DNA of 64,000 nt from NCBI GenBank assembly GCA_949300375.1, contig CASGEB010000003.1:263-64262 (forward strand), written 5' to 3'. Origin of the DNA: an uncultured Pseudomonadota bacterium. Lineage in GTDB: Bacteria > Pseudomonadota > Alphaproteobacteria > RF32 > CAG-239. A program made the translations under genes and the position numbers. Of this stretch, positions 1 to 60,697 are shown piece after piece. The notes beneath the pieces are model-generated. The model saw only the letters and a program-made list of their open reading frames with translations. It did no database searches and was not told the DNA's origin. Position 1 is the stretch's first letter. Each line of letters starts with the position of its first letter.

Positions 1-10
1 TTGTTGATGT

Positions 11-39
11 GGATCCCCGGGTCGCAGCCCGGGGATGAC
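11..39. repeat. REP-like palindrome (TGTC/CGTC-tagged family)
   Basis: GGATCCCCGGGTCGCAGCCCGGGGATGAC; ATCCCCGGG/CCCGGGGAT stem; near-identical to the copy at 60525-60552. Confidence 0.8.
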
Positions 40-57
40 CGGTGCGACCGGCGCGCG

Positions 58-192
58 GCACACCCGGCGGGTGAGGCGTCAGCTTATATGGTGCTAAAGA
101 GACCGCGGCCGAACGTCGGCAGTGTTCAGTTTATGCAGTGCCAAAGAGACCGCGTTGCTATAGCGGAAATGTGAAGGACATTGTGCTTTGAA
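58..192 (+). repeat. Modular cassette repeat, locus A
   Basis: GTGCYAAAGAGACCGCG at 91 and 138 (47 nt apart); 58-77 identical to 11303-11322; GACCGCGTTGCT (148-159) and CATTGTGCTTTGAA (179-192) recur at 60424 and 60456. Confidence 0.75.
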
Positions 193-202
193 TTATGAAA
201 AA

Positions 203-394
203 TCAGGGTAATTCTTTTTCAACGTAAGTTCCGTCGCTGTGAATTTCGATATGGTCCAAATTCTGGCGCGCAACAAAGTTTCCGGTTTTATGCAAAGCCT
301 CATTGACGCCTGCCGCCAGATAATTGTCATAAACCCATTTGCCGCCATAAGCCAGACCGGCTAAAATTATCAGATATACTATAAGTTTCATCAT
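203..394 (-). CDS. Small single-TM hypothetical protein
   Basis: 63 aa, N-terminal hydrophobic helix (LIVYLIILAGLAYGG), GGAG RBS upstream. Confidence 0.65.
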   Translation of the reverse strand: MMKLIVYLIILAGLAYGGKWVYDNYLAAGVNEALHKTGNFVARQNLDHIEIHSDGTYVEKELP

Positions 395-523
395 TGTTCT
401 CCTTTTTTTGCTAATTTTCTTTTAATACAAAAAAGTAAACAAATGTTTATTGACAAAAATTTACAAAAATGATATTGTTTTTTTATAAAAATATTTTTAT
501 GTTTAATAAAAAAATTGACTATT

Positions 524-1069
524 ATGTATCAGATGCAACGAGAATGGATTACGACCTGTTGTCCTGAATTATCCCAATCACAAAAAGAGCAATATCTGGC
601 AATTCTTGACAAATTGGAACAGCAAAAACAAGCTTTATCTCAAGAGGAGGTTATGGCTTATGCCGCAAAAATCCGACCGGTTTTGTTTGGCTCAAACGGG
701 AAGGCTGTGCTTGATCCTAAACCGGAAGACAAAGAGATTTACTGGATTGAGAGTACGCCGATTGCTACGGTGAGCGCCGCTTTTTACCGCAAGGTTATTG
801 GTCGGGCAGACGGGCTTAAAGAACTCGGGCGGATTGAATCGTATCATCCTTTCCACGGATATTATGGTTTCTTGCGGCCTTCGACCGCCGACGCAATTTA
901 TCAATGTCCGAAAGAAATTTTGAACAAGGTTTGTGCTTTTGCCTTTGTGACACCGGATTTGGATGTGAGAACCACATGTGATTTTAATCTGGAAATGCAC
1001 AAACTGACAATTGTTTACTTTAAAGGGGAACTTCCGCAGGAAATTGCTGCAACGCCCATAGAATGGTAA
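524..1069 (+). CDS. Hypothetical protein (HPFHGYYGFLRPS motif)
   Basis: Long ORF between an AT-rich promoter region and a terminator; ATG at 524 preferred over TTG at 515. Confidence 0.7.
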   Translation: MYQMQREWITTCCPELSQSQKEQYLAILDKLEQQKQALSQEEVMAYAAKIRPVLFGSNGKAVLDPKPEDKEIYWIESTPIATVSAAFYRKVIGRADGLKELGRIESYHPFHGYYGFLRPSTADAIYQCPKEILNKVCAFAFVTPDLDVRTTCDFNLEMHKLTIVYFKGELPQEIAATPIEW

Positions 1070-1071
1070 AG

Positions 1072-1106
1072 AAAAAAAGATGCTTTATAAATAAGCATCT
1101 TTTTTT
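1072..1106. terminator. Bidirectional intrinsic terminator
   Basis: A7-GATGCTT...AAGCATC-T7 between convergent genes. Confidence 0.8.
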
Positions 1107-1107
1107 G

Positions 1108-1911
1108 TTATCTCTCGCGGCCGGAACGGGAATTGTCATATTCCAGCAGGCGGGCCACATTTTGTTCGACTTCCGGATCAAGCTCCCGGCGAATCTGGCG
1201 GGACGGCTGATATTTTCCGGCAGAGTTTAATAAATTGTCCAATATCTCCAACGGATTTTTGCCGGCAAGCAGCTGCTGTCTGGTCATTTCGTTAGCCAAA
1301 GACTGGACGATTGCATTGCGAAAAGCCTCTTGTGCCGAATCGCGGGCTTTTTCTTCTTTTATTCGTTCTTTCTCGGTATATTTGCGATGGAATCGGGCGA
1401 ACTCGTAAATCGGATCGCCGCCGCGCTGAAATCCGTTCAGACCGGTCAGGCGCGTTTTTTCATCTATCAGCGATGATATGCCGAATCCTTCCCTGTCGCG
1501 GTAAATCATCCAGTCTTCAATAATTTCGGGATAAACGGCGGCGTCGGCATCAGCCGGGTGGATATTGCCGAAATCAACCATCTTTATATGTTCGTCGGCC
1601 TGATAAACATTAATGTTTTCAATAAAAAACTCCCGTGTTTCACGGTTACGGCGCACCGGATTGACCATTGCCTGCGACAAACAAAGGGCGACCAATGCTG
1701 TTTTGAACTCCTGAGAGGCCATATAATTGATTTTGCGCGGATCTTTCATCACCTCGGCATCTTTTAACACCTGATTTATGCAATAATTATGCAGATTTTT
1801 CAAAGCAGACAGCTGAGAATAGCCTAAAGGAACGTTTGAGGCTATTTCAACGGCCGCCGCTTTTTCGATAATATGATGAATCGCCTGTTGTAACTTTTTG
1901 TTATCATTCAT
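1108..1911 (-). CDS. Hypothetical protein with Arg-rich C-terminus (…NSRSGRER)
   Basis: ORF with GGAAAGG RBS before ATG at 1911; no family recognised. Confidence 0.7.
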   Translation of the reverse strand: MNDNKKLQQAIHHIIEKAAAVEIASNVPLGYSQLSALKNLHNYCINQVLKDAEVMKDPRKINYMASQEFKTALVALCLSQAMVNPVRRNRETREFFIENINVYQADEHIKMVDFGNIHPADADAAVYPEIIEDWMIYRDREGFGISSLIDEKTRLTGLNGFQRGGDPIYEFARFHRKYTEKERIKEEKARDSAQEAFRNAIVQSLANEMTRQQLLAGKNPLEILDNLLNSAGKYQPSRQIRRELDPEVEQNVARLLEYDNSRSGRER

Positions 1912-2135
1912 TTCAAAACCTTTCCGTTCTGTCGGGATTATAGCACGGAATGCTTTGCATTTCCACAAAAAAATCTGCCCTGAAAATCACATTTCTTTCC
2001 TAAAAAATTCCCCAATATCTGAATTTCTTAATTAAATTATTGATTTATTAATTCTTTTTGAATAGACTACAGCTATCATACTTTCGGGTCTTAGACCGGA
2101 ATATGAGAGAAAAAAACTACGTAAGGAGATCCTTT

Positions 2136-2933
2136 ATGAATTATAAAACTATATTGATGGCTTCAGCTGCTGTTATGTTTGCAACTGCTGCTTCTGCTAA
2201 AGATATCACCAACCCGTTTTATCTGCCGGAACAAGGCAAAGTTCTGTCTGACACTTCTATTGAAATGTCCCGTACAAACTTTAAACATTATGGCAATGAT
2301 GACAAGAGTTTGTATGCTAATGAAGAAATTACCTACGGCGTAACCGATAATTTCTCAATCTTCGGTTCTATCGGCAACGAATTCGACGGCAAGAAGTTCT
2401 CTAACGGCGAATATAACAATGATCATAACTTTGATTATATGCTCGGCGCTAAATATAATATGCAGGCAGGAAACTGGCTGGCACAGGTAGGCGCTCACTA
2501 CTATACTTATGATCAGGAAAGCTGGTATGGCCACAACAGACCGAACGGCAATGACAGATGGTACAAAGAACTGGGCGCTCAGGTTAAGCTCGGTTATGAC
2601 CTCTGCAACGGTTGGACTCCTTATACGAGTTTTGACATTGCCGGAAATATTGACGATGCTGAACGCGATCTTGGATATTCTTGGTTCGGCGGCGTTCACA
2701 AGAAATTCGACAAAGCTTCTGTTGATGCCGGTCTGCGTTATGACTTTAACCATAATGACGGCAGCGCTAACCAGCTGTATGCTCAGGCTGAAGCCAACTA
2801 CTTCATTAAAGACAATATCGCTGTTGGTCTTTATGGCGATTATTATCTGGCAGGCAACGATGGTGAAAATTGGGAAGATGCTGACATCGACTATGATTAC
2901 ACCGCCGGTCTGCAGGCAAAAGTTTTGTTCTAA
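2136..2933 (+). CDS. Outer-membrane beta-barrel protein (porin-like)
   Basis: AAGGAG RBS, Sec signal ending AASA, alternating aromatic beta strands, C-terminal beta-signal ending in Phe (GLQAKVLF). Confidence 0.85.
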   Translation: MNYKTILMASAAVMFATAASAKDITNPFYLPEQGKVLSDTSIEMSRTNFKHYGNDDKSLYANEEITYGVTDNFSIFGSIGNEFDGKKFSNGEYNNDHNFDYMLGAKYNMQAGNWLAQVGAHYYTYDQESWYGHNRPNGNDRWYKELGAQVKLGYDLCNGWTPYTSFDIAGNIDDAERDLGYSWFGGVHKKFDKASVDAGLRYDFNHNDGSANQLYAQAEANYFIKDNIAVGLYGDYYLAGNDGENWEDADIDYDYTAGLQAKVLF

Positions 2934-2955
2934 TTTTAACAGACAAGCTTTTAAC

Positions 2956-2984
2956 GGGGATCCTTTTCAAGGGTCCCCTTTTTA
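2956..2984 (+). terminator. Intrinsic terminator
   Basis: GGGGATCC…GGGTCCCC stem followed by T6. Confidence 0.75.
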
Positions 2985-3159
2985 TGTTCAAAAAAAAATT
3001 TTTTGAACTTTTTTTGCCGTTAAATCGTTTATAATTATGTGAGATTTATCAGATTTTAAATATTTAAAAATAAAAACACGAATAAGATATTGTAAAACAA
3101 ACAGTTTTTGAAATATATAATTCGTAACTCAAAAAAAAACAAAGAACAGAGAAAAAACG

Positions 3160-4362
3160 ATGGGAAAAATGAAAAAATTTGTGGGAAGAAATAAAAAACT
3201 TTTAATCTTTGCCTTTATTATCCTGGCCGGATTTTATATCTATTCCGCATATTTTAAAACCGGAAACGCGGTATCTTATATAACAGAACCGGTCAAGAGG
3301 CAAAATATTCAAAAAGTTGTGAATGCGACCGGCGAGGTCAGAGCCAGCGATTTGGTTACCGTCGGCGCCCAGGCTTCCGGTAAAATTGAAAAGCTTTATG
3401 TTTCCATCGGACAAGAAGTCAAAAAAGGAGATTTGATTGCGGAAATTGATTCAACAACCCAGCAAAACGAAGTTGATATCAACAAAGCGCGGCTGGACAG
3501 TTATCAGGCTCAGCTTAAAGCAGCACAGATTTCTCTGGATATTGCAAAAAAACAATACGACCGTACCCTTACTTTGAAAAAACGCAACGCGGCATCGGTG
3601 GAAGACGTGGAAAATGCCGAAGATACATTTGAAAGCGCAAAAGCAAGAGTTACGGAACTCGAATCGAGTATAAAAGAAACCGAAATTTCGTTGAGTACCG
3701 CAGAAACGAATCTGGGATATACAAAAATTACGGCGCCGCTTGACGGCACGGTTGTTTCTATCCCGGTCAAAGAAGGACAGACCGTTAACGCCGCAATGAA
3801 CACGCCGACGATTGTTCAGATTGCCGATTTGAGCAGAATGGAGATTTTGATTGAGATTTCGGAAGGCGATATCGGAAACATCAGACCAGGCGCAAAAGTT
3901 ACTTATTCTATTTTGGCGAATCTGGGCGATGTTTTTGAAACAACGCTGCAATCCATTGACCCGGGGCTGACTTCTCTGACCAACGGTGAATACACCGATA
4001 CCGAAGTTGTGGATTCAACACAGGCTATTTATTATTACGGCCGGCTGAATGTTCCCAATCCGGACGGCAAGCTGCGAATCGGGATGACGACGCAAAACGT
4101 TATTTATGTTGAAAGCGCGGAAGACGTATTGACCGTGCCGGTTACCGCTTTGAAAAAAGAAGGAAACGAGACTTATGTGGAAGTTCTCACCCCGCACGGC
4201 ATTATGAAATGTTCCGTTACGACCGGCGTTTCCGACGGGATGAATGTGGAAGTTACAAACGGTGTGGCCGAGGGGGATGAGGTTATTATTGCCTCGATGT
4301 CGTCCGATGAAATTTCGGATATGGCGGCCAATGCCCGGGGCGCAAGACGGAGACGTTTTTAA
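3160..4362 (+). CDS. macA: MacA-like periplasmic adaptor subunit
   Basis: N-terminal TM, lipoyl/hairpin motifs (VGAQASGKIEKLYV, ITAPLDGTV), directly upstream of macB. Confidence 0.9.
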   Translation: MGKMKKFVGRNKKLLIFAFIILAGFYIYSAYFKTGNAVSYITEPVKRQNIQKVVNATGEVRASDLVTVGAQASGKIEKLYVSIGQEVKKGDLIAEIDSTTQQNEVDINKARLDSYQAQLKAAQISLDIAKKQYDRTLTLKKRNAASVEDVENAEDTFESAKARVTELESSIKETEISLSTAETNLGYTKITAPLDGTVVSIPVKEGQTVNAAMNTPTIVQIADLSRMEILIEISEGDIGNIRPGAKVTYSILANLGDVFETTLQSIDPGLTSLTNGEYTDTEVVDSTQAIYYYGRLNVPNPDGKLRIGMTTQNVIYVESAEDVLTVPVTALKKEGNETYVEVLTPHGIMKCSVTTGVSDGMNVEVTNGVAEGDEVIIASMSSDEISDMAANARGARRRRF

Positions 4363-6303: not shown

Positions 6304-6304
6304 G

Positions 6305-9890: not shown

Positions 9891-11276
9891 TTAAAACGGA
9901 AATTTCAGGTTCTGTCCGCCCGGCAAACCGCCGAACGACCCTTTTTTCATAAACCGGGAAGCCAGGGCGCCCATACCGCCCATTTTTCCCATTCTTTTCA
10001 TCATCGTCGACATCTGCTCATATGATTTGAGCAGCTTGTTAACTTCATGAACTTCTACGCCGGAACCCGCCGCAATCCTTTTTTTGCGGGAGGCCTTGAT
10101 AATGTCGGGATTTCTTCTTTCCGCTTTGGTCATGGAAAGAATAATCGCCTCTTGTTTTTTAATCAGATTATCGCCGCCGGCGTTCTCAATCTGATTCTTA
10201 AACCCGGAAAGCCCCGGCATCATGCCGATAATGCCGCCCAAACTGCCCAGCTTTTGAAGCTGCCGGAGCTGGGAAAGCATATCTTCCAGGTCAAACTTGC
10301 CCTTGAGCATCTTCTGCGCCATTTTTTCGGCTTCAGTGCGGTCAACGTTTTCAATGGCTTTTTCTACCAGAGAAACAACATCGCCCTGCCCTAAAATCCG
10401 CCCGGCCAGACGCTCGGGATGAAACTCCTCAATCTCATCAATTTTTTCACCGGTTCCCAAAAATTTAATCGGCACTCCGGAAACCATCCGCATCGACAAT
10501 GCCGCGCCAGCCCGGGCCGAACCGTCTATTCTGGTCAGGACAATGCCGGTAAGGCCGACTTTGGCATTAAACTCTTTAGCCACATTGCAGGCATCCTGTC
10601 CGATCATGGCATCGGCAACCAAAAGGGTTTCTGCCGGATTGGAGATTTTTTTAACCTCTACGACCTCGTTCATCAGAGTTTCGTCAATATGCAAACGGCC
10701 GGCCGTATCGAGAATAATCACGTCATAGCCGCCCTTTTTGCCCTCGTTCAACGCCCTTTTGGCAATCTCCGCCGGTTTTTCGCCTTTGACTATCGGCAGA
10801 GAGACGACGCCGATTTGCGATGCCAGCTGCGCCAGCTGCTCCTGCGCCGCCGGACGGTATATGTCCAGCGATGCCAACAAAACTTTTTTGCGGTTTTTGT
10901 CTTTTAAGCGTTTGGCAATCTTGGCCGAGGTTGTGGTTTTGCCGGAGCCTTGCAGTCCGACCATTAAAATGCAAACCGGCGGAACGGCTTTAAAATTTAA
11001 ACCGCAATCTTCCGCTCCCAGCAATTTTACCAGTTCGTCATGAACAATCTTGACGACCATCTGCCCCGGTTTGACGGATTTAACGACTTTTTCGCCCAAA
11101 GCCTCGGTTTTAACCCTGGCAATAAAATCTTTGACAACCGGCAGAGAAACATCTGCTTCCAGCAAAGCGACGCGAATGTCGCGCATGGCTTCGTCAATGT
11201 CTTTTTCATTCAAGACGCCCCGTGAGGTTATCTTAGAAAAAGCAGCGTTTAATTTATCCGTTAAAGCGTCAAACAC
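9891..11276 (-). CDS. ffh: Signal recognition particle protein Ffh
   Basis: GLQGSGKTTT, DTAGR, TRIDGSARAG, M-domain; GTG start with AAGGA RBS. Confidence 0.97.
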   Translation of the reverse strand: MFDALTDKLNAAFSKITSRGVLNEKDIDEAMRDIRVALLEADVSLPVVKDFIARVKTEALGEKVVKSVKPGQMVVKIVHDELVKLLGAEDCGLNFKAVPPVCILMVGLQGSGKTTTSAKIAKRLKDKNRKKVLLASLDIYRPAAQEQLAQLASQIGVVSLPIVKGEKPAEIAKRALNEGKKGGYDVIILDTAGRLHIDETLMNEVVEVKKISNPAETLLVADAMIGQDACNVAKEFNAKVGLTGIVLTRIDGSARAGAALSMRMVSGVPIKFLGTGEKIDEIEEFHPERLAGRILGQGDVVSLVEKAIENVDRTEAEKMAQKMLKGKFDLEDMLSQLRQLQKLGSLGGIIGMMPGLSGFKNQIENAGGDNLIKKQEAIILSMTKAERRNPDIIKASRKKRIAAGSGVEVHEVNKLLKSYEQMSTMMKRMGKMGGMGALASRFMKKGSFGGLPGGQNLKFPF

Positions 11277-11287: not shown

Positions 11288-11530
11288 TGCCTACATACTA
11301 TTGCACACCCGGCGGGTGAGGCATCAATGTCAACTCTCTGCCCCGAGAACCGCGTTGCTCCGACATATTTTTTGAACAACTATATGCCTACATACTATTG
11401 CACGCATCGGCGGGTGAGGCATCAATGCCAACTTTCTGCCCCGAGGACCGCGTTGCTCCGACATATTTTTTGAACAACTATATGCCTACATACTATTGCA
11501 CGCCAGTGTGCGAACCCTCGCTGACTGGCG
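11288..11530 (+). repeat. Tandem 97/98-bp repeat (2 full units + 19-bp third start) built of alternating 46/52-nt cassettes, ending in a hairpin; locus B
   Basis: TGCCTACATACTATTGCAC at 11288, 11385, 11483; CAACTnTnTGCC at 11331, 11377, 11429, 11475; hairpin CGCCAGT…ACTGGCG at ~11501-11530. Confidence 0.9.
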
Positions 11531-11780
11531 GCACTCCTCGGAGTGTTATCAAAAATTCCATACCTTTAAAAGGAGAAATCTGTTTATATTTATGCGCTTT
11601 TATACCGGTATTCTTTTTAACAGTCAAGAACTTTTTGTATAGATTACAGCATATTGTTTCAACAAATTCTGCCTTTATACAAATGTCCGACAAAATCAAT
11701 ATATGATTTTTCAAAACGTATTGGATTATTATTGTTTTTGTGTTATACTTAGAGATATATAACTTTTTAGGAGAACAGAA

Positions 11781-13361
11781 ATGTTAACACGCGATGAAAT
11801 CAGAGAAGCCAGAAAAGGCAGCATTACAGAAATGATTACAAACATGGGTTTTAACCGGGATTCATTTTTATATTTGAATATGAACGACCAAAGACAAATG
11901 GATTCCGGACAATCTATCGGCGGTTTTGAAGATGTTTTCAAAATGGATGGGCAAGTCTACGGTGCAAATTCTCAGGCTGTCGGCATTACCGGCTCCAACA
12001 ACGGAACTTATGCCGCTTATCTTCCCGGCGGACAATATATTGTTACGCAAGACCGGAAAATTATTGAAGCTTTGCAGGAAAAATGCCATTTTCAAGACGG
12101 CGGGCTGGGCGTTATCCTTTCCAACGGCGAACGTTTTTCTTCTTCCTATGATAATGAGCAGTGGGAAAAAGTCAAAACAGAATGCGCCCGCATTAACCGC
12201 AACAACGAATGGGAGTATAACCGACAGCAGGAAGCCAAGGCTTTTGACGGCGTGAGCTTTGAAGGTTATACGTTTAAGTACCGTGAAGGAAAAGAAGGAA
12301 AACTGTCTAATACGGCCGGAGAAATCAAAACACCGAGCGGAAAGACATTTTCAATAAACAGTTTTTATTTTGAAAATGACAATAAATACGGAAAAATGGC
12401 GCAAGAATTTTCTTCCAAAGAATTTGAGGAAAAAATTTATAAAGGCGAAATCAGCAAAGACGAGGTTATGAGCCGGATGGACGGCGCCGACAAAGCCGGA
12501 AAAGAGTTTGAGGAAAGCAAAGGACGCTTAAAAACGGCTCAGGAAAAACTGGACAGGGTTCAAAAAGAACTTGATAACAGCCGCCTTGAAGAAACAAATC
12601 TGAGTCAAGTTGATGAGAAGATAAAAGCCGTACAAGCCAAGCTTAAAGATTATCTGGACAAGAATCCGAAAAAAGCACCGGAACTGCAGGCTTATATTTC
12701 AGATATTATAAAATCGGCTACACAGGGCAAAGACCCCGAAATGAAAAATCCACTGGAACCCAAAGGCTTTTTCGGAAAAACAAAGGCTTTTCTGTTCGGA
12801 CGGAAGATAAGTGTTGAGGGTGTGGGGTTGGAAACGGCTATGAGTTCTTTGCAATCTACCCTGAAAAGAAACCCCGATGCCGTTAAAAATACTGCCGAAG
12901 ATAAAGATTTTTCTTTAGACGGCTTCGGCAAAAAAATCGAGAGCCATTTAAAAGAGGTTTCCGACAAAGTGAAACAGAACACAAATGCCAGAGAAGATGC
13001 CGGGAAATCTCTGGAAGCCACGGAAGACGCCGTGGCCAGAAACGCTTTTCACGTGGCAAAATTCAACAAATTGAAAGACACGGTATCAAAAATTTTCGGC
13101 GACAAGGAAGCAGCCAAAGAAATTGAGCTTAAAAGCACCGCCCGCGATACGACCGGCATAAAAGACATTAATACCAACAGCGGCATTGACAAGCTGGCGG
13201 AAAAAGCGAAAGCAATGGAAGGAATGACTGCCGGACAGCGCTTGGAGCAAAGGATGAGCCAGTTGCGCGGCATGGCAAAAGAAGAACCGAAAAAAGCCGT
13301 TGCCCGCAAAGTAGATTCCAACACGGTCAAACGGGCAATGGACAACAAGATGAGAGATTGA
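11781..13361 (+). CDS. Large Lys/Glu-rich coiled-coil hypothetical protein
   Basis: 526 aa, AGGAG RBS, no signal peptide or TM, long heptad-like central region. Confidence 0.85.
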   Translation: MLTRDEIREARKGSITEMITNMGFNRDSFLYLNMNDQRQMDSGQSIGGFEDVFKMDGQVYGANSQAVGITGSNNGTYAAYLPGGQYIVTQDRKIIEALQEKCHFQDGGLGVILSNGERFSSSYDNEQWEKVKTECARINRNNEWEYNRQQEAKAFDGVSFEGYTFKYREGKEGKLSNTAGEIKTPSGKTFSINSFYFENDNKYGKMAQEFSSKEFEEKIYKGEISKDEVMSRMDGADKAGKEFEESKGRLKTAQEKLDRVQKELDNSRLEETNLSQVDEKIKAVQAKLKDYLDKNPKKAPELQAYISDIIKSATQGKDPEMKNPLEPKGFFGKTKAFLFGRKISVEGVGLETAMSSLQSTLKRNPDAVKNTAEDKDFSLDGFGKKIESHLKEVSDKVKQNTNAREDAGKSLEATEDAVARNAFHVAKFNKLKDTVSKIFGDKEAAKEIELKSTARDTTGIKDINTNSGIDKLAEKAKAMEGMTAGQRLEQRMSQLRGMAKEEPKKAVARKVDSNTVKRAMDNKMRD

Positions 13362-15986: not shown

Positions 15987-16230
15987 TCTACGAGTTCAAA
16001 TCTCGGAGCTCGCATACTAAAACACCAAAACCCTCCAACGGAGGGTAAATATATTGGCGCGACCCCAACGGATTAGGGACTCCCGCTGGCGGGGCCTCCT
16101 TGCGCCGTAAGCCTCGCGCTTCTTAAAATCGCGCTCGCCAACTACCCGCTTCGAACTCTACGAGTTCAAATCTCGGAGTTCGCATACTAAAACACCAAAA
16201 CCCTCCAACGGAGGGTTTTGGTGTTTTAGT
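15987..16230. repeat. 60-bp direct repeat (15987-16046 / 16157-16216, 1 mismatch) with tRNA-Glu-derived pieces and a 21-bp-stem hairpin
   Basis: Copies 170 nt apart; ACTAAAACACCAAAACCCTCC-AAC-GGAGGGTTTTGGTGTTTTAGT perfect hairpin; GACCCCAACG and TTCGAACTC match the tRNA-Glu 3' arm. Confidence 0.85.
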
Positions 16231-16257
16231 GGCGATGCTTAACTCACGGTTTACGAA

Positions 16258-17136
16258 TTAAATGGATAAACAATTATGTTGTTTTAATTTTTGATTAATG
16301 ATAATGGTTTGAATATGTTGCTTTCCTTCTTTTTGTAAAATCAATCCATTCATAACATCATCTTTAGGCATTCTAATTATATCAGCTACCGCTTTAGTTT
16401 TATCCTCCCAGTTATAATTATCAATTTTTGAAAATTCGTTCAGCATAAAATTTGTAGCATCAAACTTGTTAAGCCCATATATGTTTTCTACTCGTTTTGT
16501 ATATGCCAACATCCATAAATAAACTGACATATAAGATTTTAACTGCTGTGTTTCTCGCCCATCCATTTCATCGACGGCAAACATTCCTTTTTGGTTGAGA
16601 AATGTCATACTAAGCATATTTTCTTCTTGAAAAGAAGTAATTGATTTTTGGTGTTTTAAATTTCTTTCCTCATATCCCATTAAATAATGGGGCACTAATT
16701 CTGCAAATCCTTCACTTATTTGTCCTAAATTACGAAAATACCCGCCATGAATAACGTGTGCAAGTTCATGAGTTAATCCTATCCTAGATTGGAAATCAGG
16801 ATTTTTAAATCCATTTGCAAACCAATTATAATCAACACATAAACTTAATGGATAATTTTTATCAAGCTGAATAGGAGCTTCACACATTCCTTCTTCAATA
16901 GGTAACCCAACGGTGGAAGAAAATTCTTTTCCAGTAGGAACAATCAAAAAACTAAAGCACAATGGTTGTTTGAAATTAATAGGTAAATTGGCAATATTAT
17001 TTGCTAATTTATCCATAGTTTTTACAAAATCTTTTCCAATAGCATTTATATTATACTGCTCTATCATATTATTTTTTAGAGCAATTCGTATATTATCTGT
17101 AACATCAAATATTTTGTAATCTTTTATTTGTATCAT
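16258..17136 (-). CDS. Low-GC gluzincin-type zinc metallopeptidase-like protein
   Basis: THELAHVIH (HExxH) followed by SEGFAE third-ligand motif; visibly more AT-rich than its neighbours. Confidence 0.7.
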   Translation of the reverse strand: MIQIKDYKIFDVTDNIRIALKNNMIEQYNINAIGKDFVKTMDKLANNIANLPINFKQPLCFSFLIVPTGKEFSSTVGLPIEEGMCEAPIQLDKNYPLSLCVDYNWFANGFKNPDFQSRIGLTHELAHVIHGGYFRNLGQISEGFAELVPHYLMGYEERNLKHQKSITSFQEENMLSMTFLNQKGMFAVDEMDGRETQQLKSYMSVYLWMLAYTKRVENIYGLNKFDATNFMLNEFSKIDNYNWEDKTKAVADIIRMPKDDVMNGLILQKEGKQHIQTIIINQKLKQHNCLSI

Positions 17137-17422
17137 TAAGTTAACTTCATAAATAGGAATTATTATATCGACGAATAAGTATATTATATCAAAGGATATA
17201 ACAAATTTATATAAAAATTTTTTAAATTTTCATTTTAGTAGAAACTAATCCAATGTTTTAAAAATCAGAAAATCGAATAACACATTGAAAAACAAATAAA
17301 CAAGATTAAAAAAGTTCGGACAAATTGAAAAAATGATGATTTTTGAAAATTAAACATCCGAACTTGATGAAAGCCTTGGAAATAAAAGAAAAAGCAGCCA
17401 TTTTCATGACTGCTGTTTGAAT

Positions 17423-17498
17423 TGGTGACCCCAACGAGATTCGAACTCGTGTTCCCACCGTGAAAGGGTGGTGTCCTAGGCCTCTAGACGATGGGGTC
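17423..17498 (-). tRNA. tRNA-Glu (TTC)
   Basis: GACCCCA…TGGGGTC-ACCA acceptor, CCACC-CT-TTC-AC-GGTGG anticodon arm, GAGTTCGAATCTC T-arm; 76 nt. Confidence 0.97.
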
Positions 17499-32860: not shown

Positions 32861-32975
32861 CCACAGGCGGCAGCCCGGGCAGCCGGCTGCCAACATTGTA
32901 TGCCACAAGCCGCAGGGATTAGTTTATGCGGCACCTTGAAACACGCCGTATCCCGGCATAATTTGCGAATGACAT
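32861..32975 (+). repeat. Diverged modular cassette repeat, locus D
   Basis: 32861-32897 aligns to 60377-60413 at 28/37, all 9 differences transitions; AGTTTATGCGGCACC (32921) resembles 128-142. Confidence 0.6.
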
Positions 32976-53076: not shown

Positions 53077-53095
53077 ACTCATTTCTAAAACTATT

Positions 53096-53201: not shown

Positions 53202-53252
53202 GTATTTGGTATTTTACTGTTTGCCGCATCCGGGCAGGCTTTCTGCCGCCGG

Positions 53253-53677: not shown

Positions 53678-53694
53678 GGTTAAAAATGCCTTAA
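53678..53694 (-). promoter_or_regulatory. CtrA-type box TTAA-N7-TTAAC
   Basis: Minus strand TTAAGGCATTTTTAACC. Confidence 0.55.
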
Positions 53695-53941: not shown

Positions 53942-54715
53942 ATGACAAAAATTACATGGAAACCCGGAACAATTCTGGCTCCGGTGCCACCGGCGCTGAT
54001 TTCATCCGGAACGACGGACAAACCAAACGTTATGACAGCCGCCTGGACCGGCATTATCGCCTCAGAACCGGCAATGACTTATGTTTCTATCCGTCCGTCC
54101 CGTTATTCGCACGAGATTATCAGCCGGACAAAAGAGTTTGTCATCAATCTGCCGACGCTTGCCTTGGCCGCCGCCACTGATTTTTGCGGCGTCAAATCCG
54201 GGCGCAGCGTAGACAAGTTTAAAGAAATGAATCTTACACCCCTGCCATGTTCACAGGTTCAGGCTCCACAGATTGCAGAATCTCCGGTTTCTATGGAATG
54301 CAAGGTAAAAGACATTTATCATTACGGAACGCATGATATGTTTGTGGCCGAGATTGTTGCCGTTAATATCGACGACCGATATCTTGATGAAGACGGAAGG
54401 CTGGCTTTGGAAAAGGCCGGGCTTCTGGCTTATGTTCACGGGCATTATTATACTTTAGGAAGGCAGCTCGGGAAATTTGGTTTTTCGGTTGAAAAAAGCC
54501 GCCTTAAAATGATGCAGAAAATGGCCGACATAAAGGTTGAAGTTAAAGAAAGCAAAAAAGGCGCTTTGAAAAAAGATGAAAAGGTTATGCAGAAAGCGGC
54601 CCGCAAATTCAGCGGAAAATCAAAATTTGAACGCAGCCGGCCTCATACGCCAGAACTGAAACCAAAGAAAAAATACGGAAACGGGCGAGGTTTTCAAAAG
54701 AAAACCCGAAATTAA
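53942..54715 (+). CDS. Flavin reductase-like (flavoredoxin) protein with a long basic C-terminal extension
   Basis: LAPVPPALIS, NVMTAAW, SIRPSRYSH, EFVINLP, DFCGVKSGR, IAESPVSMEC, GTHDMFVAEI. Confidence 0.88.
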   Translation: MTKITWKPGTILAPVPPALISSGTTDKPNVMTAAWTGIIASEPAMTYVSIRPSRYSHEIISRTKEFVINLPTLALAAATDFCGVKSGRSVDKFKEMNLTPLPCSQVQAPQIAESPVSMECKVKDIYHYGTHDMFVAEIVAVNIDDRYLDEDGRLALEKAGLLAYVHGHYYTLGRQLGKFGFSVEKSRLKMMQKMADIKVEVKESKKGALKKDEKVMQKAARKFSGKSKFERSRPHTPELKPKKKYGNGRGFQKKTRN

Positions 54716-54765
54716 ACAAAAAGCTTCGTCCTCAACGGGCGAAGCTTTTACTTTTTTTTCAAAAA

Positions 54766-55248
54766 TCACTTAAGATTTTTCAGCTTTTTGCGAATTTCCA
54801 TCAGAATATTCCCAATGTTGTTCTCTCCGACATAAGAACCCTCTACTTTACAGACACCCCAATAAATGTCGCCTGACGTATTAAGCTTTACAATTTCCCG
54901 GTCGCCGGTAGCCAGAAGTTTTTGCCCCAAGTCTTTGTTGCCGTAAAACTTTTGCCAAAGGAGATCATACATAACCTTGTATTTCACATTTTTCCAGTCC
55001 GGCGTTGTGGCGTGGGTTACATACTTTTTGGCTTCTTCCGGAGTCATTCTTGAAATTTTTCGTTGAATGGCGGGATCCGCAATTTTTGCTGCCTGATAAG
55101 CAGTTTCAACATTGTCAAAAGGAATACCGTTCAATTGAATCACAATTTTTTCAGGATAGGCATTGCTTAAGAAATGATATTCTTCCACATAAAAGTTTGC
55201 AATTGCTTCCTGTTCACTGGTCTTGAATTGAAATCTTTGTGTTTTCAT
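54766..55248 (-). CDS. NADAR (YbiA-like) family protein
   Basis: FLSNAYP, FDNVETAYQAAK, WKNVKYKVM…KF…LLATGDREIV…DIYWG…GENNIGNILMEIR. Confidence 0.88.
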   Translation of the reverse strand: MKTQRFQFKTSEQEAIANFYVEEYHFLSNAYPEKIVIQLNGIPFDNVETAYQAAKIADPAIQRKISRMTPEEAKKYVTHATTPDWKNVKYKVMYDLLWQKFYGNKDLGQKLLATGDREIVKLNTSGDIYWGVCKVEGSYVGENNIGNILMEIRKKLKNLK

Positions 55249-55383
55249 TTTGATAAAATTTAAAATTATACGAATAAAAATTTTGTTTATTCTCGTTATA
55301 AACACCACCGAGGCTTAATTGTCAAGTAAAATCCCAATCCTTTTAAAAGAGAAAACCCCTCGTAAAAACGAGGGGCTGCCTGA

Positions 55384-56589
55384 TTATTGCGGACGGTTCT
55401 GCCAATATTGCAGTTCTTTTTGCATATTATGCCGGGCGGTCTCTTCCAGCATTTCCTTAAAGAAAGGAAGGTGAAAGATTTCCGCTTTCAGACAATTTTG
55501 CAAAAAAGACTTCCGACCAGAAGCAAAAGCTTTTTCATTAATTGCCGGATATTCGTTCCGAATACCGAGGCAATATCTGCCATAATTGAGTTCATCACCC
55601 AAAATTGCCATATCAATATCGCTTATCAGTTTTTCAGCCTCTGTTTCTCTTGACTTTTTCGGAGGATGAACCGTGGCCCGAATCAGTTTAGACACGAGTT
55701 CATTCTTTTTGTTAATATACAGTTTGCCGCTAACGTTTGCGATTGACTTTTCCTCAGAATCATCTTCTCCCCAAACATAATCATGATAAAACCAAGCATA
55801 AAGGAACAACTCTTTCGGAATATTTTTTTGCCCGCCAGATAAGCGGCAGAAAATATTAAAAAGATTTATTCCATAAGCCAGGTGACTCAGATTATGCCAT
55901 GAGCGTTGTTCATAAGCTTTACACAATTCATCCCAGGCTTTTTCCGGCTGACCGCCAAAGTACCCCGGAACAGTTCCGTGATAGGCTTCAATAAACGTTT
56001 TTTTCAGACATATCTTCATCATGGCATTATGCACCCGAGGGGCAACATATGGCATAGCTGCAATATATTCTTCCAATCCGCAGAGATTTCTGACGGCGGA
56101 AGAAGAAACATAGGTCAGATTCTCCTGCGGAACAGGAATCAAATCCATTACCAAAGAACGACGGCGGACAGACAAAAGCTGTTTGTTGATGATTGACTGA
56201 TACATTTCATCGGCGTCGTCTCCGACGATTCTTTTTCCCCGAATCAATGCTGTTGCCCCATAGTATAATGCGGCATCAACAGTCAGGCTGTCATAAGAAA
56301 CAATATCAAGGCAGTCTTCTTTTTCCAAGCGGGTCAAGGCTTTTTCTTCCGATACAGAAAAAACGTATCCGCAAAGGCGGCGATTTTGCCAAAGGTTTAA
56401 AAAATCCTGCAAACTCTGCCGTACCAGTTCTTTTCGTTTATCTATGCCAAAGAAGTGTTTTTTCTTGTCGGGATTTTCGCCGATACCGACAATCACTTTG
56501 TCATAAGAACACAAGGCTTCACAAACAATTCGGAAATGTCCGACGGTAAAAGGATCAAAAGATCCGGCATAAAAAGCTATCTTTTCCAT
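55384..56589 (-). CDS. CoaD-like adenylyltransferase fused to an HD-family (COG4339-like) phosphohydrolase
   Basis: YAGSFDPFTVGH, LIRG, VSSSAVR; C-half WHNLSH, FYHD, DIDMAILG, IRNEY, GRKSFL. Confidence 0.8.
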   Translation of the reverse strand: MEKIAFYAGSFDPFTVGHFRIVCEALCSYDKVIVGIGENPDKKKHFFGIDKRKELVRQSLQDFLNLWQNRRLCGYVFSVSEEKALTRLEKEDCLDIVSYDSLTVDAALYYGATALIRGKRIVGDDADEMYQSIINKQLLSVRRRSLVMDLIPVPQENLTYVSSSAVRNLCGLEEYIAAMPYVAPRVHNAMMKICLKKTFIEAYHGTVPGYFGGQPEKAWDELCKAYEQRSWHNLSHLAYGINLFNIFCRLSGGQKNIPKELFLYAWFYHDYVWGEDDSEEKSIANVSGKLYINKKNELVSKLIRATVHPPKKSRETEAEKLISDIDMAILGDELNYGRYCLGIRNEYPAINEKAFASGRKSFLQNCLKAEIFHLPFFKEMLEETARHNMQKELQYWQNRPQ

Positions 56590-56659
56590 ACAAAAAATAA
56601 TTTAATTAATAATTCTTTTAAGAATTTTGCATTTTATGCCGGAATTTTATTATGTCAAG

Positions 56660-57361
56660 CTATTTACGCAAATCAAAATCAGAAAAAATCTGCTGAAGAT
56701 GCGCCGTCAGTTCAGGATTATTGAAAAACTGCTCGCACTGCCAGTCCTGCGTTACGGTATCTGACGGAACCGGGCGGTATTTTTGCAAATGGTAGCTCTT
56801 GACGCCGCGCTTTTTGAGTTCTTCGGCGATGGCATAGATATCTTCTATGCTCAAAATGCGGGGATCGCAGGTTGTGCGGCATTCAAAGGAGATTCCGCTG
56901 TCCAAAAGCAGCTGCAGACTTTCTAAAGCCCTGGCGAGATGATTGGCTCCGCCGACGGCTTTTTGATATTTTTCCGCGACAAAGGGCGCTTTGATGTCAA
57001 AACCCACCCAGTCCAGCAGAGGCAAAATTTTCTTCAGATGTTCCGGACGGTAACCCCCTGTATGCAAACCGATTTTATACCCCAAAGCTTTTACTTCTCT
57101 GATTTTGCTTTCCAGCGCATCTTGCACGAGCGGCTCTCCGCCGCTAAAAACGACGGCATCCAAAGCCTTTGTCCGCTTTTGCAAAAACTCAAAAATCACT
57201 TTCCAGTCATGATTCCCGTTCTGGCCGATTTTTTGCAGTTCGGTATTGTAGCAAAACGGACAACGCCACGGACATCCCTGCAGAAAAATAACCGCCGCCA
57301 CCTGTCCGGGATAATCTACCAAACTAAAACGCTCAATGCCGCCGATATTTATCTCTTCCAT
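56660..57361 (-). CDS. nrdG: Anaerobic RNR activating radical-SAM protein
   Basis: SLVDYPG, GCPWRCPFCYN (CxxxCxxC), FSGGEP. Confidence 0.92.
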   Translation of the reverse strand: MEEINIGGIERFSLVDYPGQVAAVIFLQGCPWRCPFCYNTELQKIGQNGNHDWKVIFEFLQKRTKALDAVVFSGGEPLVQDALESKIREVKALGYKIGLHTGGYRPEHLKKILPLLDWVGFDIKAPFVAEKYQKAVGGANHLARALESLQLLLDSGISFECRTTCDPRILSIEDIYAIAEELKKRGVKSYHLQKYRPVPSDTVTQDWQCEQFFNNPELTAHLQQIFSDFDLRK

Positions 57362-57441
57362 TCTTTACCTCTTATAAAAATCCCCGGTATGATGAAAGAT
57401 TATCCTACCGGGGATTGTTTTTTTAACAAAGCGTTTAAGAA

Positions 57442-57639
57442 TTACTCTGCTGCAACATCCATTGCATCAAATTTTACGGCTTTGCTTTCACAGAAGCATA
57501 CACGGGAGTAAAACTCAGATTTTTTGCCCTTGTTGAACTCGGAAACCGGACGGTGATAGCCCATTACTCTGGTCCAGATTTCGCAGGGTTGTCTTTCTTC
57601 ATCGCTTAATTTTACATCTTCAAAATTAACAGTATTCAT
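57442..57639 (-). CDS. Small NrdD C-terminal (glycyl-radical loop) protein
   Basis: CEIWTRVMGYHRPV…NKGKKSEF; GGAG RBS. Confidence 0.85.
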   Translation of the reverse strand: MNTVNFEDVKLSDEERQPCEIWTRVMGYHRPVSEFNKGKKSEFYSRVCFCESKAVKFDAMDVAAE

Positions 57640-57670
57640 TTCTTTCTCCATTTGTTGATTGAATTTTACT

Positions 57671-59746
57671 CTATGCAACTTCTTTTCTGGAAGCTGCGGC
57701 TCTTCTTTTTTCTGCCTTTTTCTCTTCATCACAGATCGGGCAATACTTATGTTCACCGGAAAGGTAGCCGTGTTTCGGACAAATCGAAAACGTCGGCGTA
57801 ATGGTGACATAAGGCAGTCGGTAGTTGGTCAGAACACGGCGGACGATGTCGCGGCAGACCTTGGCTGATGAAACTCTCTGACCCATGTACAGGTGCAATA
57901 CCGTACCGCCGGTGTATTTTGTCTGCAGTTTTTCCTGCAGTTCCAAAGCCTCAAACGGGTCATCAGTGTAGTTAACCGGCAGCTGGGACGAGTTGGTATA
58001 ATACGGATTTTCTTCCGTCCCGGCCTGCAGGATTCCTTTAAATCTCTTCTTGTCTTCGCGGGCAAAGCGATAAGTCGCACTTTCGGCCGGCGTGGCTTCC
58101 AGGTTATACATATGCCCGGTTTCTTCCTGAATTTTTACCATTCTGTCGCGGATATGATTCAGGAATCTTTCGGCAAAGTCTTGTCCCCATTCATCTGCAA
58201 CATTATGCTCGTCATTGGTAAAGTTGCGGATCATCTCGTTAATGCCGTTAACGCCGAAAGTCGAGAAGTGGTTGCGCAATGTGCCGAGATAACGTTTGGT
58301 ATACGGGAACAAACCGTTGTCAATGAGTCTTTGGATAACCTTGCGCTTGATTTCCAGAGAAGTCTTGGCCAGTTCCAGCAACTCGTCGACACGACCCAAC
58401 AAGGCATGCTCGTCGCCTTTGTAAAGGTATCCCAAACGGGCGCAGTTAATGGTCACAACACCAATCGAACCCGTTTGCTCGGCAGAGCCAAACAAGCCGT
58501 TTCCTTTGGCCAAAAGCTCGCGCAGGTCAAGCTGCAGGCGGCAGCACATTGAGCGAATCTGTCCCGGCTTTAAGACGGAATTGATAAAGTTCTGGAAATA
58601 AGGCAAACCATATTTGGCCGTCATTTCAAACAAGAGTTCGGTATTTTCATCTTCCCACGGAAAATCAGGAGTCATATTATAAGTCGGAATCGGGAAGGTG
58701 AACGGACGGCCTTTGATATCGCCTTTCATCATAACCGAAATGTATGCTTTGTTAATCATATGCATTTCTTCGGTCAAATCTCCGTAAGTGAAGTCCTGTT
58801 CAACGCCGGCAATCATCGGATGTTTGTCGCGCAGGTCTTCCGGACATACCCAGTCGAACGTAAAGTTGGTAAACGGTGTTTGAGAACCCCAGCGGGACGG
58901 AACATTCAGGTTATAAATCAGTTCCTGGAAAGACTGTTCAACTTGTTCATAAGTCAGGTGATCTACACGGACATACGGGGCAAGATATGTATCGACGGAA
59001 GAAAATGCCTGAGCGCCGGCCCATTCGTTTTGCAGAGTACCCATAAAGTTAACCATCTGTCCGACAGCGGCAGACAAATGTTTGGCCGGACCGGCTTCCG
59101 CTTTGCCCGGGACGCCGTTAAACCCTTCGTGCAACAAGTTTTTCAGCGACCAACCGGCGCAATAAGCCGCCAACATATCCAAATCGTGAATGTGAAAATC
59201 GCCGTTGCGATGCGCTTCGCCAACAGCCGCCGGATAAACATGGCTCAGCCAGTAGTTGGCCGTTACTTTGCCGGAGACGTTCAAAATCAACCCGCCGTTA
59301 GAGTATCCCTGGTTGGCGTTGGCATTAACGCGCCAGTCCAGCTTTTCCAGATATTCGTTGATAGAGCTTTCAACGTCAACCATAACCTTTTTGTCTGTAC
59401 GCATACGGTTGCGTTGGTCGCGGTATAAAATATAAGCCTTAGCTGTTGCAAAATAGTTGGCAGAAATCAGAACCTGCTCAACAATATCCTGAATTTGTTC
59501 AATGGATGGAAGAGAATCCGTAAACTTATGCTTCATAACCTTTAAGACCTGAGCGGTCAAAAGCCAGCTTTCCTCTTCGCCGAACTCGCCCGTCGTCGTA
59601 CCGGCTTTGTTAATAGCGTTAAAAATTCTGGTGTTGTCAAACGGGGCTAAGGTGCCATCTCTTTTGGTAACGCTGTCAAAAGGGATGTTCTCAGCAATCT
59701 TGCTCTGAGAAATTTCGTTATCGTTTACGGACATATCTTCGCTCAT
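57671..59746 (-). CDS. nrdD: Class III ribonucleoside-triphosphate reductase large subunit with ATP cone
   Basis: VTKRDG ATP cone, HIHDL, RSMCCRL, NLEATPAES, YTGGTVLH, CPKHG…CPIC; lacks RVxGY. Confidence 0.95.
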   Translation of the reverse strand: MSEDMSVNDNEISQSKIAENIPFDSVTKRDGTLAPFDNTRIFNAINKAGTTTGEFGEEESWLLTAQVLKVMKHKFTDSLPSIEQIQDIVEQVLISANYFATAKAYILYRDQRNRMRTDKKVMVDVESSINEYLEKLDWRVNANANQGYSNGGLILNVSGKVTANYWLSHVYPAAVGEAHRNGDFHIHDLDMLAAYCAGWSLKNLLHEGFNGVPGKAEAGPAKHLSAAVGQMVNFMGTLQNEWAGAQAFSSVDTYLAPYVRVDHLTYEQVEQSFQELIYNLNVPSRWGSQTPFTNFTFDWVCPEDLRDKHPMIAGVEQDFTYGDLTEEMHMINKAYISVMMKGDIKGRPFTFPIPTYNMTPDFPWEDENTELLFEMTAKYGLPYFQNFINSVLKPGQIRSMCCRLQLDLRELLAKGNGLFGSAEQTGSIGVVTINCARLGYLYKGDEHALLGRVDELLELAKTSLEIKRKVIQRLIDNGLFPYTKRYLGTLRNHFSTFGVNGINEMIRNFTNDEHNVADEWGQDFAERFLNHIRDRMVKIQEETGHMYNLEATPAESATYRFAREDKKRFKGILQAGTEENPYYTNSSQLPVNYTDDPFEALELQEKLQTKYTGGTVLHLYMGQRVSSAKVCRDIVRRVLTNYRLPYVTITPTFSICPKHGYLSGEHKYCPICDEEKKAEKRRAAASRKEVA

Positions 59747-59806
59747 TCCTTCGTTATTATTAGTTATAAAAAACAAAATTGTTTGTGTTATCACCTGATA
59801 ACAAGC

Positions 59807-59854
59807 ATACAATATATAGTATTAACAAAATGTAAATAAGACTAGATATAGTAT
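59807..59854. promoter_or_regulatory. Tandem NrdR boxes
   Basis: ATACAATATATAGTAT (59807-59822) and AGACTAGATATAGTAT (59839-59854), 32 nt apart, match the CwAtATaTwG core, upstream of nrdD. Confidence 0.85.
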
Positions 59855-60376
59855 GCACAGAAAAATTTTTTATTTCAAAATTCCTAACGCGCATCATCTT
59901 GAATATGTTGACATTCTGAGCGAAATATATGATGCAAACAAGGGCAAAAAAATTCTTTTTCAGGCTTGACACTGCTATCTTGCTATAATTCCACCAAAAA
60001 AAATTTTTTAAATAGTGGATAAAAAGATTAACTTTTTTAAACCCCAAAAATATCATTATTTTTCAACTCGATAGATTCTTGACGTAATCAACATATTTGT
60101 ACACAAGGAACACAAAAAAAGCTTAAATTTACAAAAACTATTTTCGGTTTCAGAATCGCCCCCACAAGATATTGTGTTTTACGCGGAGTCGAAATACAGA
60201 ATCAGGGAAAAGACTCGCCCCTTTGGCAAAAGAAGCAAAATTTTTGAGAATCGATTGGTGTTTTTCCTTATCTCTAAGATTCTCTTTTTATTTATTATCC
60301 TTTTTCTTATTTTTTGTTTTTTATAATTTATTTTTATTGTTACTTTTTGCCTGCCAAAAAGGTCGGAGGCCGGCAG

Positions 60377-60697
60377 CCACAGGCGACGGCCTGAGCGGCC
60401 AGTTGTTAACATTATGCCTTAGAGACCGCGTTGCTCCGACATTTTTTGTGAATAGCATTGTGCTTTGAAGGGTGGATTGCCGGGTCAAGCCCGGCAATGA
60501 CAAAGAAGAAAATTTGTTTGAGATGGATCCCCGGGTCAAGCCCGGGGATGACACTAAAAAACACAGCCCGGGGATGACTGTAAAAAAATAACATGCCCAG
60601 GGAGGAAAGGTGCAACCGATGGCGCTCAATCGGCAACATTGTGCTGCAGAGGCCGCGTTGCTATGATGGGGGAGGTGAACTAGATTGTGCTTTGAAG
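60377..60697 (+). repeat. Modular cassette repeat locus C with 2.5 REP palindromes
   Basis: REPs at 60474-60501, 60525-60552 and a half copy at 60564-60578; R-CCGCGTTGCT at 60424 and ~60651, ATTGTGCTTTGAA at 60457 and 60684. Confidence 0.85.

Follow-up and report, generated by a model that had tools for sequence, protein, structure and literature searches.

Mosaic repeat islands of CGTC-type REP hairpins and a body module homologous to an ffh-leader unit in uncultured gut Alphaproteobacteria

Four intergenic loci, A to D, in a 64,000-nucleotide stretch of an uncultured alphaproteobacterium (contig CASGEB010000003.1; hereafter the window, meaning the whole stretch that was analysed) carry the same short DNA modules in different orders, and the question they raise is what kind of element is built in this way. 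An earlier examination of the letters alone, here called the sequence-only reading, had proposed either a non-autonomous element mobilised by an enzyme associated with repetitive extragenic palindromes (REPs) or a multi-copy array of processed small RNAs. We consider it probable that the loci form a lineage-specific mosaic resembling the bacterial interspersed mosaic elements (BIMEs) of E. coli, and that the module in them that is not a REP descends from, or at least shares homology with, a structured repeat unit of the leader that precedes ffh, the essential gene for the signal recognition particle (SRP) protein. The window (C3:263-64262) belongs to a 1.64-Mb, 57-contig assembly that is 98.9% complete (G000); the relatives used for comparison, coded G001-G069, are metagenome-assembled genomes (MAGs), and gene calls throughout are our own crude open reading frame calls.

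The module that is not a REP, which we call the body, can be traced through motifs that lie exactly where the sequence-only reading had put them: GCACACCCGGCGGGTGAGGC at 58 and 11303, ACCGCGTTGCT at 149, 11349, 11447 and 60425, GCCGCGTTGCT at 60652, and ATTGTGCTTTGAA at 180, 60457 and 60684, with all copies in the window on the + strand, as it had also claimed. The 13-mer ATTGTGCTTTGAA occurs in 20 exact copies in G000, where 0.05 would be expected. A hidden Markov model (HMM) built on 28 aligned copies anchored at this 13-mer defines a body of ~95 nt and has 68 matches across the genome, and R1, a 74-position covariance model of the body, has 63; the proposal of a dispersed, modular, REP-associated non-coding family is thereby upheld, and the family extends well past the four loci. 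Each body consists of two sub-units, and each sub-unit of a small hairpin followed by a tail with a CWTTGTRC-type motif at its end, a layout that explains the 45-52-nt period, which is real. The hairpin of part 1 is interchangeable (CCTGCACGGCAGG, CCGGTGCGACCGG, CAGGCGACGGCCTG, GCCGAACGTCGGC or CACCCGGCGGGTG) and is followed by a tail that closes in CATTGTRCC..AGAGA. Part 2 starts with CCGCGWTGCT, a core that is invariant across the 34 full-length aligned copies, continues with a variable stretch of 19-24 nt and closes in WTTGTGCTTTGAA, and the 3' end of the body is TTGTGCTTTGAA. We rejected a MITE (a miniature transposable element with inverted repeats), since the body has no relation between its two ends (a small hairpin at the 5' end and TTGTGCTTTGAA at the 3' end) and no duplication is found where the islands of loci A, C and D meet their flanks; in the same test for target-site duplications, the 19-nt direct repeat at locus B proved to bound tandem units.

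Alongside the bodies stands a palindrome of the form GGAT[CCC/TGC/TCT]CGG[G/A]-TCAAG-...-ATGAC, of which G000 holds 117 perfect-stem copies, 57 on the + and 56 on the - strand. Read on the other strand it is (C/T)GTC-AT[TGC/CCC/TCT]CGG[G/A]-CTTGA-...-AT-CCA, and its parts are a (C/T)GTC tag, a stem of 9 bp that begins with AT, a 5-nt loop (CTTGA) and a tail of CCA, with at least four compensating variants of the stem in this genome. CGTC-tagged REPs are defined by a terminal CGTC/TGTC tag, an 8-9-bp stem starting with AT, a 4-5-nt loop and a short CCA tail; they form dimers, mostly head-to-head, with spacers of 20-100 bp, some of which are conserved and hold small stem-loops, their usual place is between genes that converge or run in the same direction, and no dedicated transposase has been reported for them (PMC3733652). 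It is the hairpins, not the body, that share the tag, stem, loop, tail and high-copy intergenic placement of this superfamily, and the palindromes that the sequence-only reading had called TGTC/CGTC-type REPs at loci A and C are indeed of this type. A stem and loop variant, TCCCCGGG-TCGCAG-CCCGGGGA, accounts for seven copies in G000. The REP pattern is present in 21 of 61 relatives, other genera and families included, with different compensating stems.

Merging REP palindromes and bodies into islands that contain either or both yields 76 islands in G000, about 46 of which hold a body, and inverted palindrome doublets of 78-79 nt lie alongside the bodies. The junctions between body and REP are fixed (a slash marks the join): a body abuts the REP head (GATGAC/C), the REP tail (..ATCC/A) or a REP truncated in its loop (CTTGAC/C), and the loop cut and the head junction carry the same pentamer. 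Tandem 3' half-REPs, GCCCGGGGATGAC followed by an A-rich spacer of ~13 nt with a period of 26-27 nt, usually run into a body. Relative to expectation, the islands are in excess between convergent genes and scarce between divergent ones, and most of them sit at the 3' ends of genes: those flanked by called genes on both sides, 46 in all, divide into 19 convergent, 22 tandem and 5 divergent, compared with 7.8, 30.3 and 7.9 expected (p = 6e-5). Many body matches in G000 fall within a few hundred bases of contig ends, and the contig breaks of the assembly can be explained by the repeat islands that sit there; the islands thus account for where assemblies of this lineage break.

The body has a far narrower distribution than that of the REPs. 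Within one clade of the window's genus, R1 finds 63, 48, 22, at least 80, 58, 65 and 56 copies per genome; the count is 0-1 in the sister clade and zero in 50 other genomes. A pattern scan across 185,579 species, each represented by one genome, returned only MAGs of uncultured gut Alphaproteobacteria, from human, mouse and deer, apart from three single hits elsewhere, which is no more than the approximately 12 chance matches estimated from the information content of the pattern.

Locus B places body-type units next to a candidate copy of a described RNA element, the ffh motif (RF01793). Its two units lie between this motif and the ribosome-binding site of ffh, would be read from the - strand within the ffh leader, and are bounded by three copies of the 19-nt direct repeat TGCCTACATACTATTGCAC; the RF01793 match lies 217 nt upstream from the start of ffh. 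Across the window, Rfam at its gathering score yields two tRNAs and nothing else. The sequence of the ffh motif is conserved upstream of ffh in most of 30 family genomes that we inspected, and in the same upstream regions a homologous leader unit of ~100 nt is found in genera g1 (both clades), g2, g9, g13 and g17 (the regions from other genera being L053, L054, L056, L059, L060 and L061, from G067, G022, G033, G064, G069 and G026, respectively), while in the remaining genera the motif runs directly into the ribosome-binding site. Unit number varies from none in G008 through about one in G010, G007, G009 and G002, two in G000 and about 2.5 in G001 to at least three in G069. Dispersed bodies and leader units are homologous: R2, a model made from ffh-leader units, finds the unit at no site other than next to ffh in G004, G006, G022, G026, G033, G064, G067 and G069, and finds the two leader units together with 17 dispersed bodies in G000. 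The 10-nt core is the best conserved stretch of the dispersed bodies and also of the leader units of all genera. By our reading, the sequence upstream of the ffh motif includes a conserved TTGACT-N17-TATAAA, although a consensus scanner rejects TATAAA as the second hexamer; if this is a promoter, the units are inside the leader transcript.

The leader unit is very probably a structured RNA. In other genera it occurs in 1 to at least 3 tandem copies and is predicted to form a long, G.U-rich hairpin with GAGCAWCGCGG at its apex, followed by two short hairpins. Outside the G000 clade, in a small sample of nine units from five genera (other genera and the sister clade), seven of the nine have fold z scores of -2.2 to -4.8 in the sense of ffh, compared with +0.5 to -1.9 in antisense, and about a quarter of the pairs in the structured units are G.U. 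Compensatory changes (A-U/U-A and U-A/C-G) and runs of U.G maintain the long helix, as tabulated in register with the conserved 3' arm CGGGGCA; these in-register pair counts replaced RNAalifold on MAFFT alignments of the leader units, which missed the helix since its 5' arm cannot be aligned. We also considered, and rejected, the idea that the unit imitates the helix of SRP RNA to which Ffh binds: the organism's own SRP RNA shares short strings only (AGCA, GGCAG), and the predicted fold is different.

Comparison of orthologous sites shows that island content turns over. At locus A, the corresponding sites in G010 and G007 hold REPs and a terminator hairpin and lack the bodies. Locus D, which the sequence-only reading had counted as a fourth member, can be recognised as one only through the orthologous site in G007, which has two intact bodies with REPs, but is itself decayed past detection by the HMM; the copies of G000 and G010 at this site have diverged far beyond their flanks. 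At locus C, sets of modules differ among genomes whose flanking proteins are 97-99% identical in amino acids, and the sole clear ortholog of the right body, in G010, has the same flank and a different insert. A further module of ~250 nt (...CCTTTGGGCCAAAAGCTAAGAAATCATTCGG...GTGCCGGATGAGRGATTGTGCWTTRAAG) was seen at C18:8480-8637 of G000 and at locus C of G010 (L021) and G007 (L022), and closes in a ATTGTGCTTTGAA-type motif, as the body does.

What moves these repeats? The window encodes no cognate enzyme, as the sequence-only reading had said. Its suggestion of a RAYT (REP-associated tyrosine transposase) or other HUH enzyme is not supported for the present, since the Pfam family Y1_Tnp (PF01797; RAYT/IS200) is absent from G000, G001 and G007-G010, and so from G000 and every high-copy relative; it was found only in G003 and G005, both without bodies, and as fragments in G002, the body carrier with the lowest copy number (22). 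In G005, a 143-aa IS200-type TnpA lies between two inverted CGTC REPs with their tags outward (L013, G005:C64, 529-1144), and 66 nt of its 3' flank share 82% identity with two islands of G000 (C18:8874-8936 and C31:15651-15713). We rejected it as a general CGTC-REP transposase: it is of IS200 type, scoring 120 bits with NF033573 (IS200 transposase) and 25 bits with the RAYT model (cut-off 80), and its homologues occur in 3 of 301 genomes of the class, none of them REP-flanked. A DUF559 nuclease (PF04480) was likewise set aside as cognate enzyme, as it shows no correlation with the repeats.

We propose that the leader unit, which exists in 0 to at least 3 tandem copies in at least six genera, would have become dispersed in one clade of the window's genus only, locus B being the ffh-leader site itself. 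Spread and reshuffling probably occurred at the DNA level, likely by recombination or gene conversion between repeats and by a putative hairpin- or REP-directed activity, and single dispersed copies would have no sequence-specific function beyond the usual role of REP-type islands at gene 3' ends. The leader unit would then be the ancestor of the body, and descent from leader to dispersed copies is favoured because the unit is confined to a single locus in five other genera and dispersed in one clade only. Several points weigh against this proposal. The direction of descent rests on distribution, not on a rooted tree. The leader units of the G000 clade have lost their fold stability (z -1.0 to +1.2) and resemble dispersed copies (e.g. 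TTCAAAAAATATGTCGGAGCAACGCGG) more than they resemble the leader units of other genera; either exchange has therefore run both ways or the leader has been re-invaded. No clean insertion of a single copy with a matching empty site was found except for the ffh-leader unit, and the route of spread is one that we infer. Finally, adjacent island pairs agree in body orientation in 32 of 34 cases (p = 7e-8; partly our own count), an agreement along whole contigs that plain recombination does not predict and that hints at a strand-specific process.

This agreement is seen in each of three genomes (7 of 7 pairs in G000 and, among the matches listed, 16 of 18 in G007 and 9 of 9 in G010, by our count), and in one syntenic segment all 17 of 17 copies are on the + strand. 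Candidate proxies for the direction of replication disagree with each other: bodies and tRNA genes lie on the same strand in 11 of 14 contigs, body orientation matches the sign of the skew at third codon positions (GC3 skew) on 8 of 12 strongly skewed contigs, and at 21 of 30 islands most protein genes point the other way from the bodies. As an observation in its own right, GC3 skew is bimodal across G000, being strong and of the replication type on about a dozen contigs (absolute R of 0.15-0.29) and about zero on the others (for example C1, C9 and C6 versus C2, C3 and C4), the class switches within C7 near 74 kb, and repeats occur in both classes.

An old miniature mobile element, either derived from IS200/IS605 in the manner of palindrome-associated transposable elements (PATEs) or linked to REPs and moving as single-stranded DNA, would have entered the ffh leader in the family's ancestor and, in most lineages, persisted at that site alone, which would make the leader copies relics of an element still active in the G000 clade. 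Asymmetric ends, small sub-terminal hairpins, head-to-tail arrays and fixed junctions at REP tags all fit such an element, as do the orientation along contigs with its agreement with tRNA genes on 11 of 14, the REP-flanked TnpA of G005 with its 66-nt vestige at two G000 islands, and the 19-nt direct repeat flanking the ffh units beside the 'empty' site of G008. We nevertheless regard it as rather unlikely, since the high-copy genomes, whose islands changed content after the species split, have no Y1/HUH gene, the few homologues of the G005 TnpA elsewhere in the class have no flanking REPs, the replication-direction proxies conflict, and the units of other genera, with their single locus, their structure in the sense of ffh only and their many G.U pairs, fit selection on an RNA better than the remains of an element. 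A bolder form of the descent from the leader, which we think unlikely, is that a structured cis-regulatory ffh-leader RNA escaped and became an orientation-coherent, genome-wide repeat by coupling to CGTC REPs, which have had no known means of spread since 2013; the fixed TGAC/C junctions at REP head and loop, together with the polarity along contigs, would then be footprints of a putative strand-specific hairpin-processing enzyme, and the copies might still bind a factor that recognises GGAGCAWCGCGG. Binding of this kind could also be the whole role of the bodies, as sites for a DNA- or RNA-binding protein comparable to the sites for IHF and gyrase in E. coli BIMEs, perhaps for the same GGAGCAWCGCGG-recognising factor of the ffh leader, with the islands serving as architectural elements or as a titrating sink. 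The conservation of the 10-nt core, the foremost block in bodies and in the leader units of every genus, would suit such sites, and BIME-type mosaics are known to bind proteins (PMC2817692); we find this quite improbable, as no candidate protein emerged, the core was lost without replacement at locus D, and the unit bears a weak resemblance to the Ffh-binding helix of the SRP RNA that the predicted fold does not support.

Two further explanations turn on the variable segment of ~20 nt. To the sequence-only reading, its position between conserved blocks had looked like that of a spacer between repeats, and a CRISPR-like array (short palindromic repeats, clustered and regularly interspaced) with unusually short spacers has this superficial pattern, and only this, in its favour; it has next to no chance of being right. 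Among 140 inserts (42 from G000 and 98 from relatives), 118 fall into three clusters common to several genomes, 9 into three small clusters confined to relatives, and 13 are singletons: they are mutually alignable variants that recur across species, set in units of one to three per REP-interleaved array and spread over ~46 islands. The search of phage and plasmid databases that had been suggested for the inserts gave no phage match, and on plasmids matched only the REP hairpin, in Rhizobiales replicons. We therefore rejected a CRISPR array on the strength of related inserts shared across species and of one to three units per island, cas genes not having been searched for. Alternatively, the dispersed bodies might be small-RNA genes or processing units, or cis elements of 3' untranslated regions, with the variable segment as a guide. 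Their homology to a very probably structured leader RNA would be in line with this, as would the invariant CCGCGWTGCT of the 34 full-length copies and the location of most islands at gene 3' ends; we hold it to be very unlikely all the same. Compared with dinucleotide shuffles, dispersed bodies have no excess stability on either strand (mean z +0.29 and -0.15), RNAalifold gave no consensus structure for them, bodies in tandem-gene islands are sense in six cases and antisense in seven (our count), and no promoter or terminator signature was seen by eye. Copies at orthologous sites have moreover decayed or been swapped, and the putative guides are shared variants that match no phage and, on plasmids, the REP hairpin alone. 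For lack of stability, of a consensus fold and of a fixed orientation to genes, we rejected dispersed bodies as a structured small-RNA or cis-RNA family, and the processed small-RNA array of the sequence-only reading is likewise not supported.

The preferred reading, a BIME-like mosaic whose body is related to the ffh-leader unit, sets the islands among repeats of known kinds. Like the BIMEs of E. coli, they are mosaic intergenic islands of variable composition in which REPs alternate with conserved non-palindromic modules; they differ from them in sequence and lineage, and in that the module that is not a REP has a homologue in a gene leader. The Rhizobium-specific and Neisseria intergenic mosaic elements (the RIMEs of Sinorhizobium and the NIMEs, with dRS3, of Neisseria) are comparable mosaic islands whose composition varies between strains. 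PATEs and other miniature elements derived from IS200/IS605 have asymmetric ends that bear sub-terminal hairpins and lack terminal inverted repeats, and their copies are oriented; the body resembles them in these end features and in orientation, but here there is no matching autonomous element and no defined target sequence. With REPIN/RAYT systems and REPtrons the islands share abundant inverted REP doublets and sharp differences in family size between related genomes, but no RAYT gene accompanies them, and the genus's only REP-flanked Y1 gene, that of G005, scores as IS200. The closest relatives of the hairpins are the CGTC-3 and CGTC-4 REPs (Di Nocera, De Gregorio & Rocco 2013), which they resemble in tag, stem, loop, tail, dimers, gene context and the want of a RAYT. 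The islands differ from these in that the ~95-nt body is not a REP and is confined to one clade, whereas the REP is class-wide, and in that the common doublets (78-79 nt) are tail-to-tail rather than mostly head-to-head as in PMC3733652. The ffh motif is described in the passages on it in Meyer 2009 (PMC2704228) as a single bulged hairpin upstream of ffh in Alphaproteobacteria; the match in the window covers the model end to end in the described position, at a score just under the gathering score, and the tandem unit of ~100 nt lies outside the model and goes unmentioned in those passages.

The REP hairpins are thus members of a described superfamily, and the islands belong with the BIMEs, RIMEs and NIMEs as a known kind. 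They are neither CRISPR-like nor a small-RNA system; they are hairpin-associated, junk-like repeats of one group of uncultured gut Alphaproteobacteria, and as far as the libraries searched show, the body family is undescribed and found in one clade only. The one unusual point is that the body has a homologue in a tandem unit next to the ffh motif, itself undescribed. For annotation, it follows that such islands should be labelled as REP-type mosaic repeats and not as CRISPR or small-RNA loci. The ffh motif, an orphan RNA element since 2009, is now accompanied by a second structured unit in variable number, and the natural series of 0 to at least 3 unit copies could be used to study the function of the leader. 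The islands also suggest a plausible way for part of a gene leader to have become a dispersed repeat in the company of CGTC REPs, and closely related genomes with 0, 22 or 80 body copies provide a set in which to find the mover of such repeats.

Table 1. Features of the repeat loci and their surroundings. Positions are those of the window unless a contig of G000 is named; a slash in a sequence marks a junction.
Feature	Position	Strand	Remarks
Locus A, REP hairpin GGATCCCCGGGTCGCAGCCCGGGGATGAC	11-39	+	CGTC/TGTC type on the opposite strand; 9-bp stem, 6-nt loop
Locus A, partial body	33-107	+	Hairpins CCGGTGCGACCGG and CACCCGGCGGGTG, tail of first sub-unit; nhmmer match C3:295-369, 19.3 bits, model 2-59
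Locus A, body	111-192	+	nhmmer 58.7 bits; R1 56.0 bits; closes in ATTGTGCTTTGAA abutting unique flank
ffh (signal recognition particle protein)	9891-11276	-	GTG start at 11276; TIGR00959, 598 bits
Locus B, two body-type units of 97-98 nt	11288-11504	+	Repeat families D2, D3 and D20; R2 69.9 and 71.6 bits
Candidate ffh RNA motif RF01793, bulged hairpin	11493-11545	-	cmscan 34.4 bits (gathering score 35), E 6.4e-05, full model 1-52
Locus D, decayed body	32861-32975	+	No HMM match
Locus C, left body	60379-60469	+	CAGGCGACGGCCTG hairpin type; nhmmer 72.8, R1 68.8, leader-unit model R2 31.9 bits
Locus C, pair of REP hairpins whose stems compensate, TGGATTGCCGGGTCAAGCCCGGCAATGACA and TGGATCCCCGGGTCAAGCCCGGGGATGACA	60473-60553	+	Repeat family D13
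Locus C, half-REP GCCCGGGGATGAC with A-rich spacer	60566-60609	+	Period ~27 nt; second copy degenerate
Locus C, right body	60605-60696	+	nhmmer 56.6 bits; stops at TTTGAA/G beside flank conserved in relatives
Half-REP arrays	60553-60610; C18:8975-9075; C37:1690-1760; C37:2040-2145		
Genes of the Cys-rich family	C44:9517-10836; C46:8286-9023; C16:33766-34182; C14:35699-35980; C29:9725-10903; C9:9016-10512		
Gene of the Cys-rich family	C39:9225-11171	-	

Beside the putative ffh promoter, a gene of 526 aa (11781-13361 in the window) has no NCBIfam match and is kept in G009 and G002; in G010, G007, G001 and G008 the same slot holds a gene resembling an FAD/NAD(P) oxidoreductase, and this slot next to the conserved leader is variable in gene content. 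Further along, two copies of 60 nt that are 98% identical, lie 170 nt apart and resemble the 3' end of a tRNA are found within 15987-16216, and a segment of 1.2 kb (~16216-17423) that adjoins both these copies and a tRNA at 17426-17498 is absent from G010.

A multi-copy sequence of ~1 kb beside the islands, considered as a possible enzyme, is a family of Cys-rich secreted proteins of up to 648 aa with the N-terminus MRNDNTMLHMKLNSAV... (Table 1). Genes of this family start 40-100 nt past REP islands, and several copies are interrupted by contig ends. They could be variable surface proteins whose upstream region travels with the repeats.

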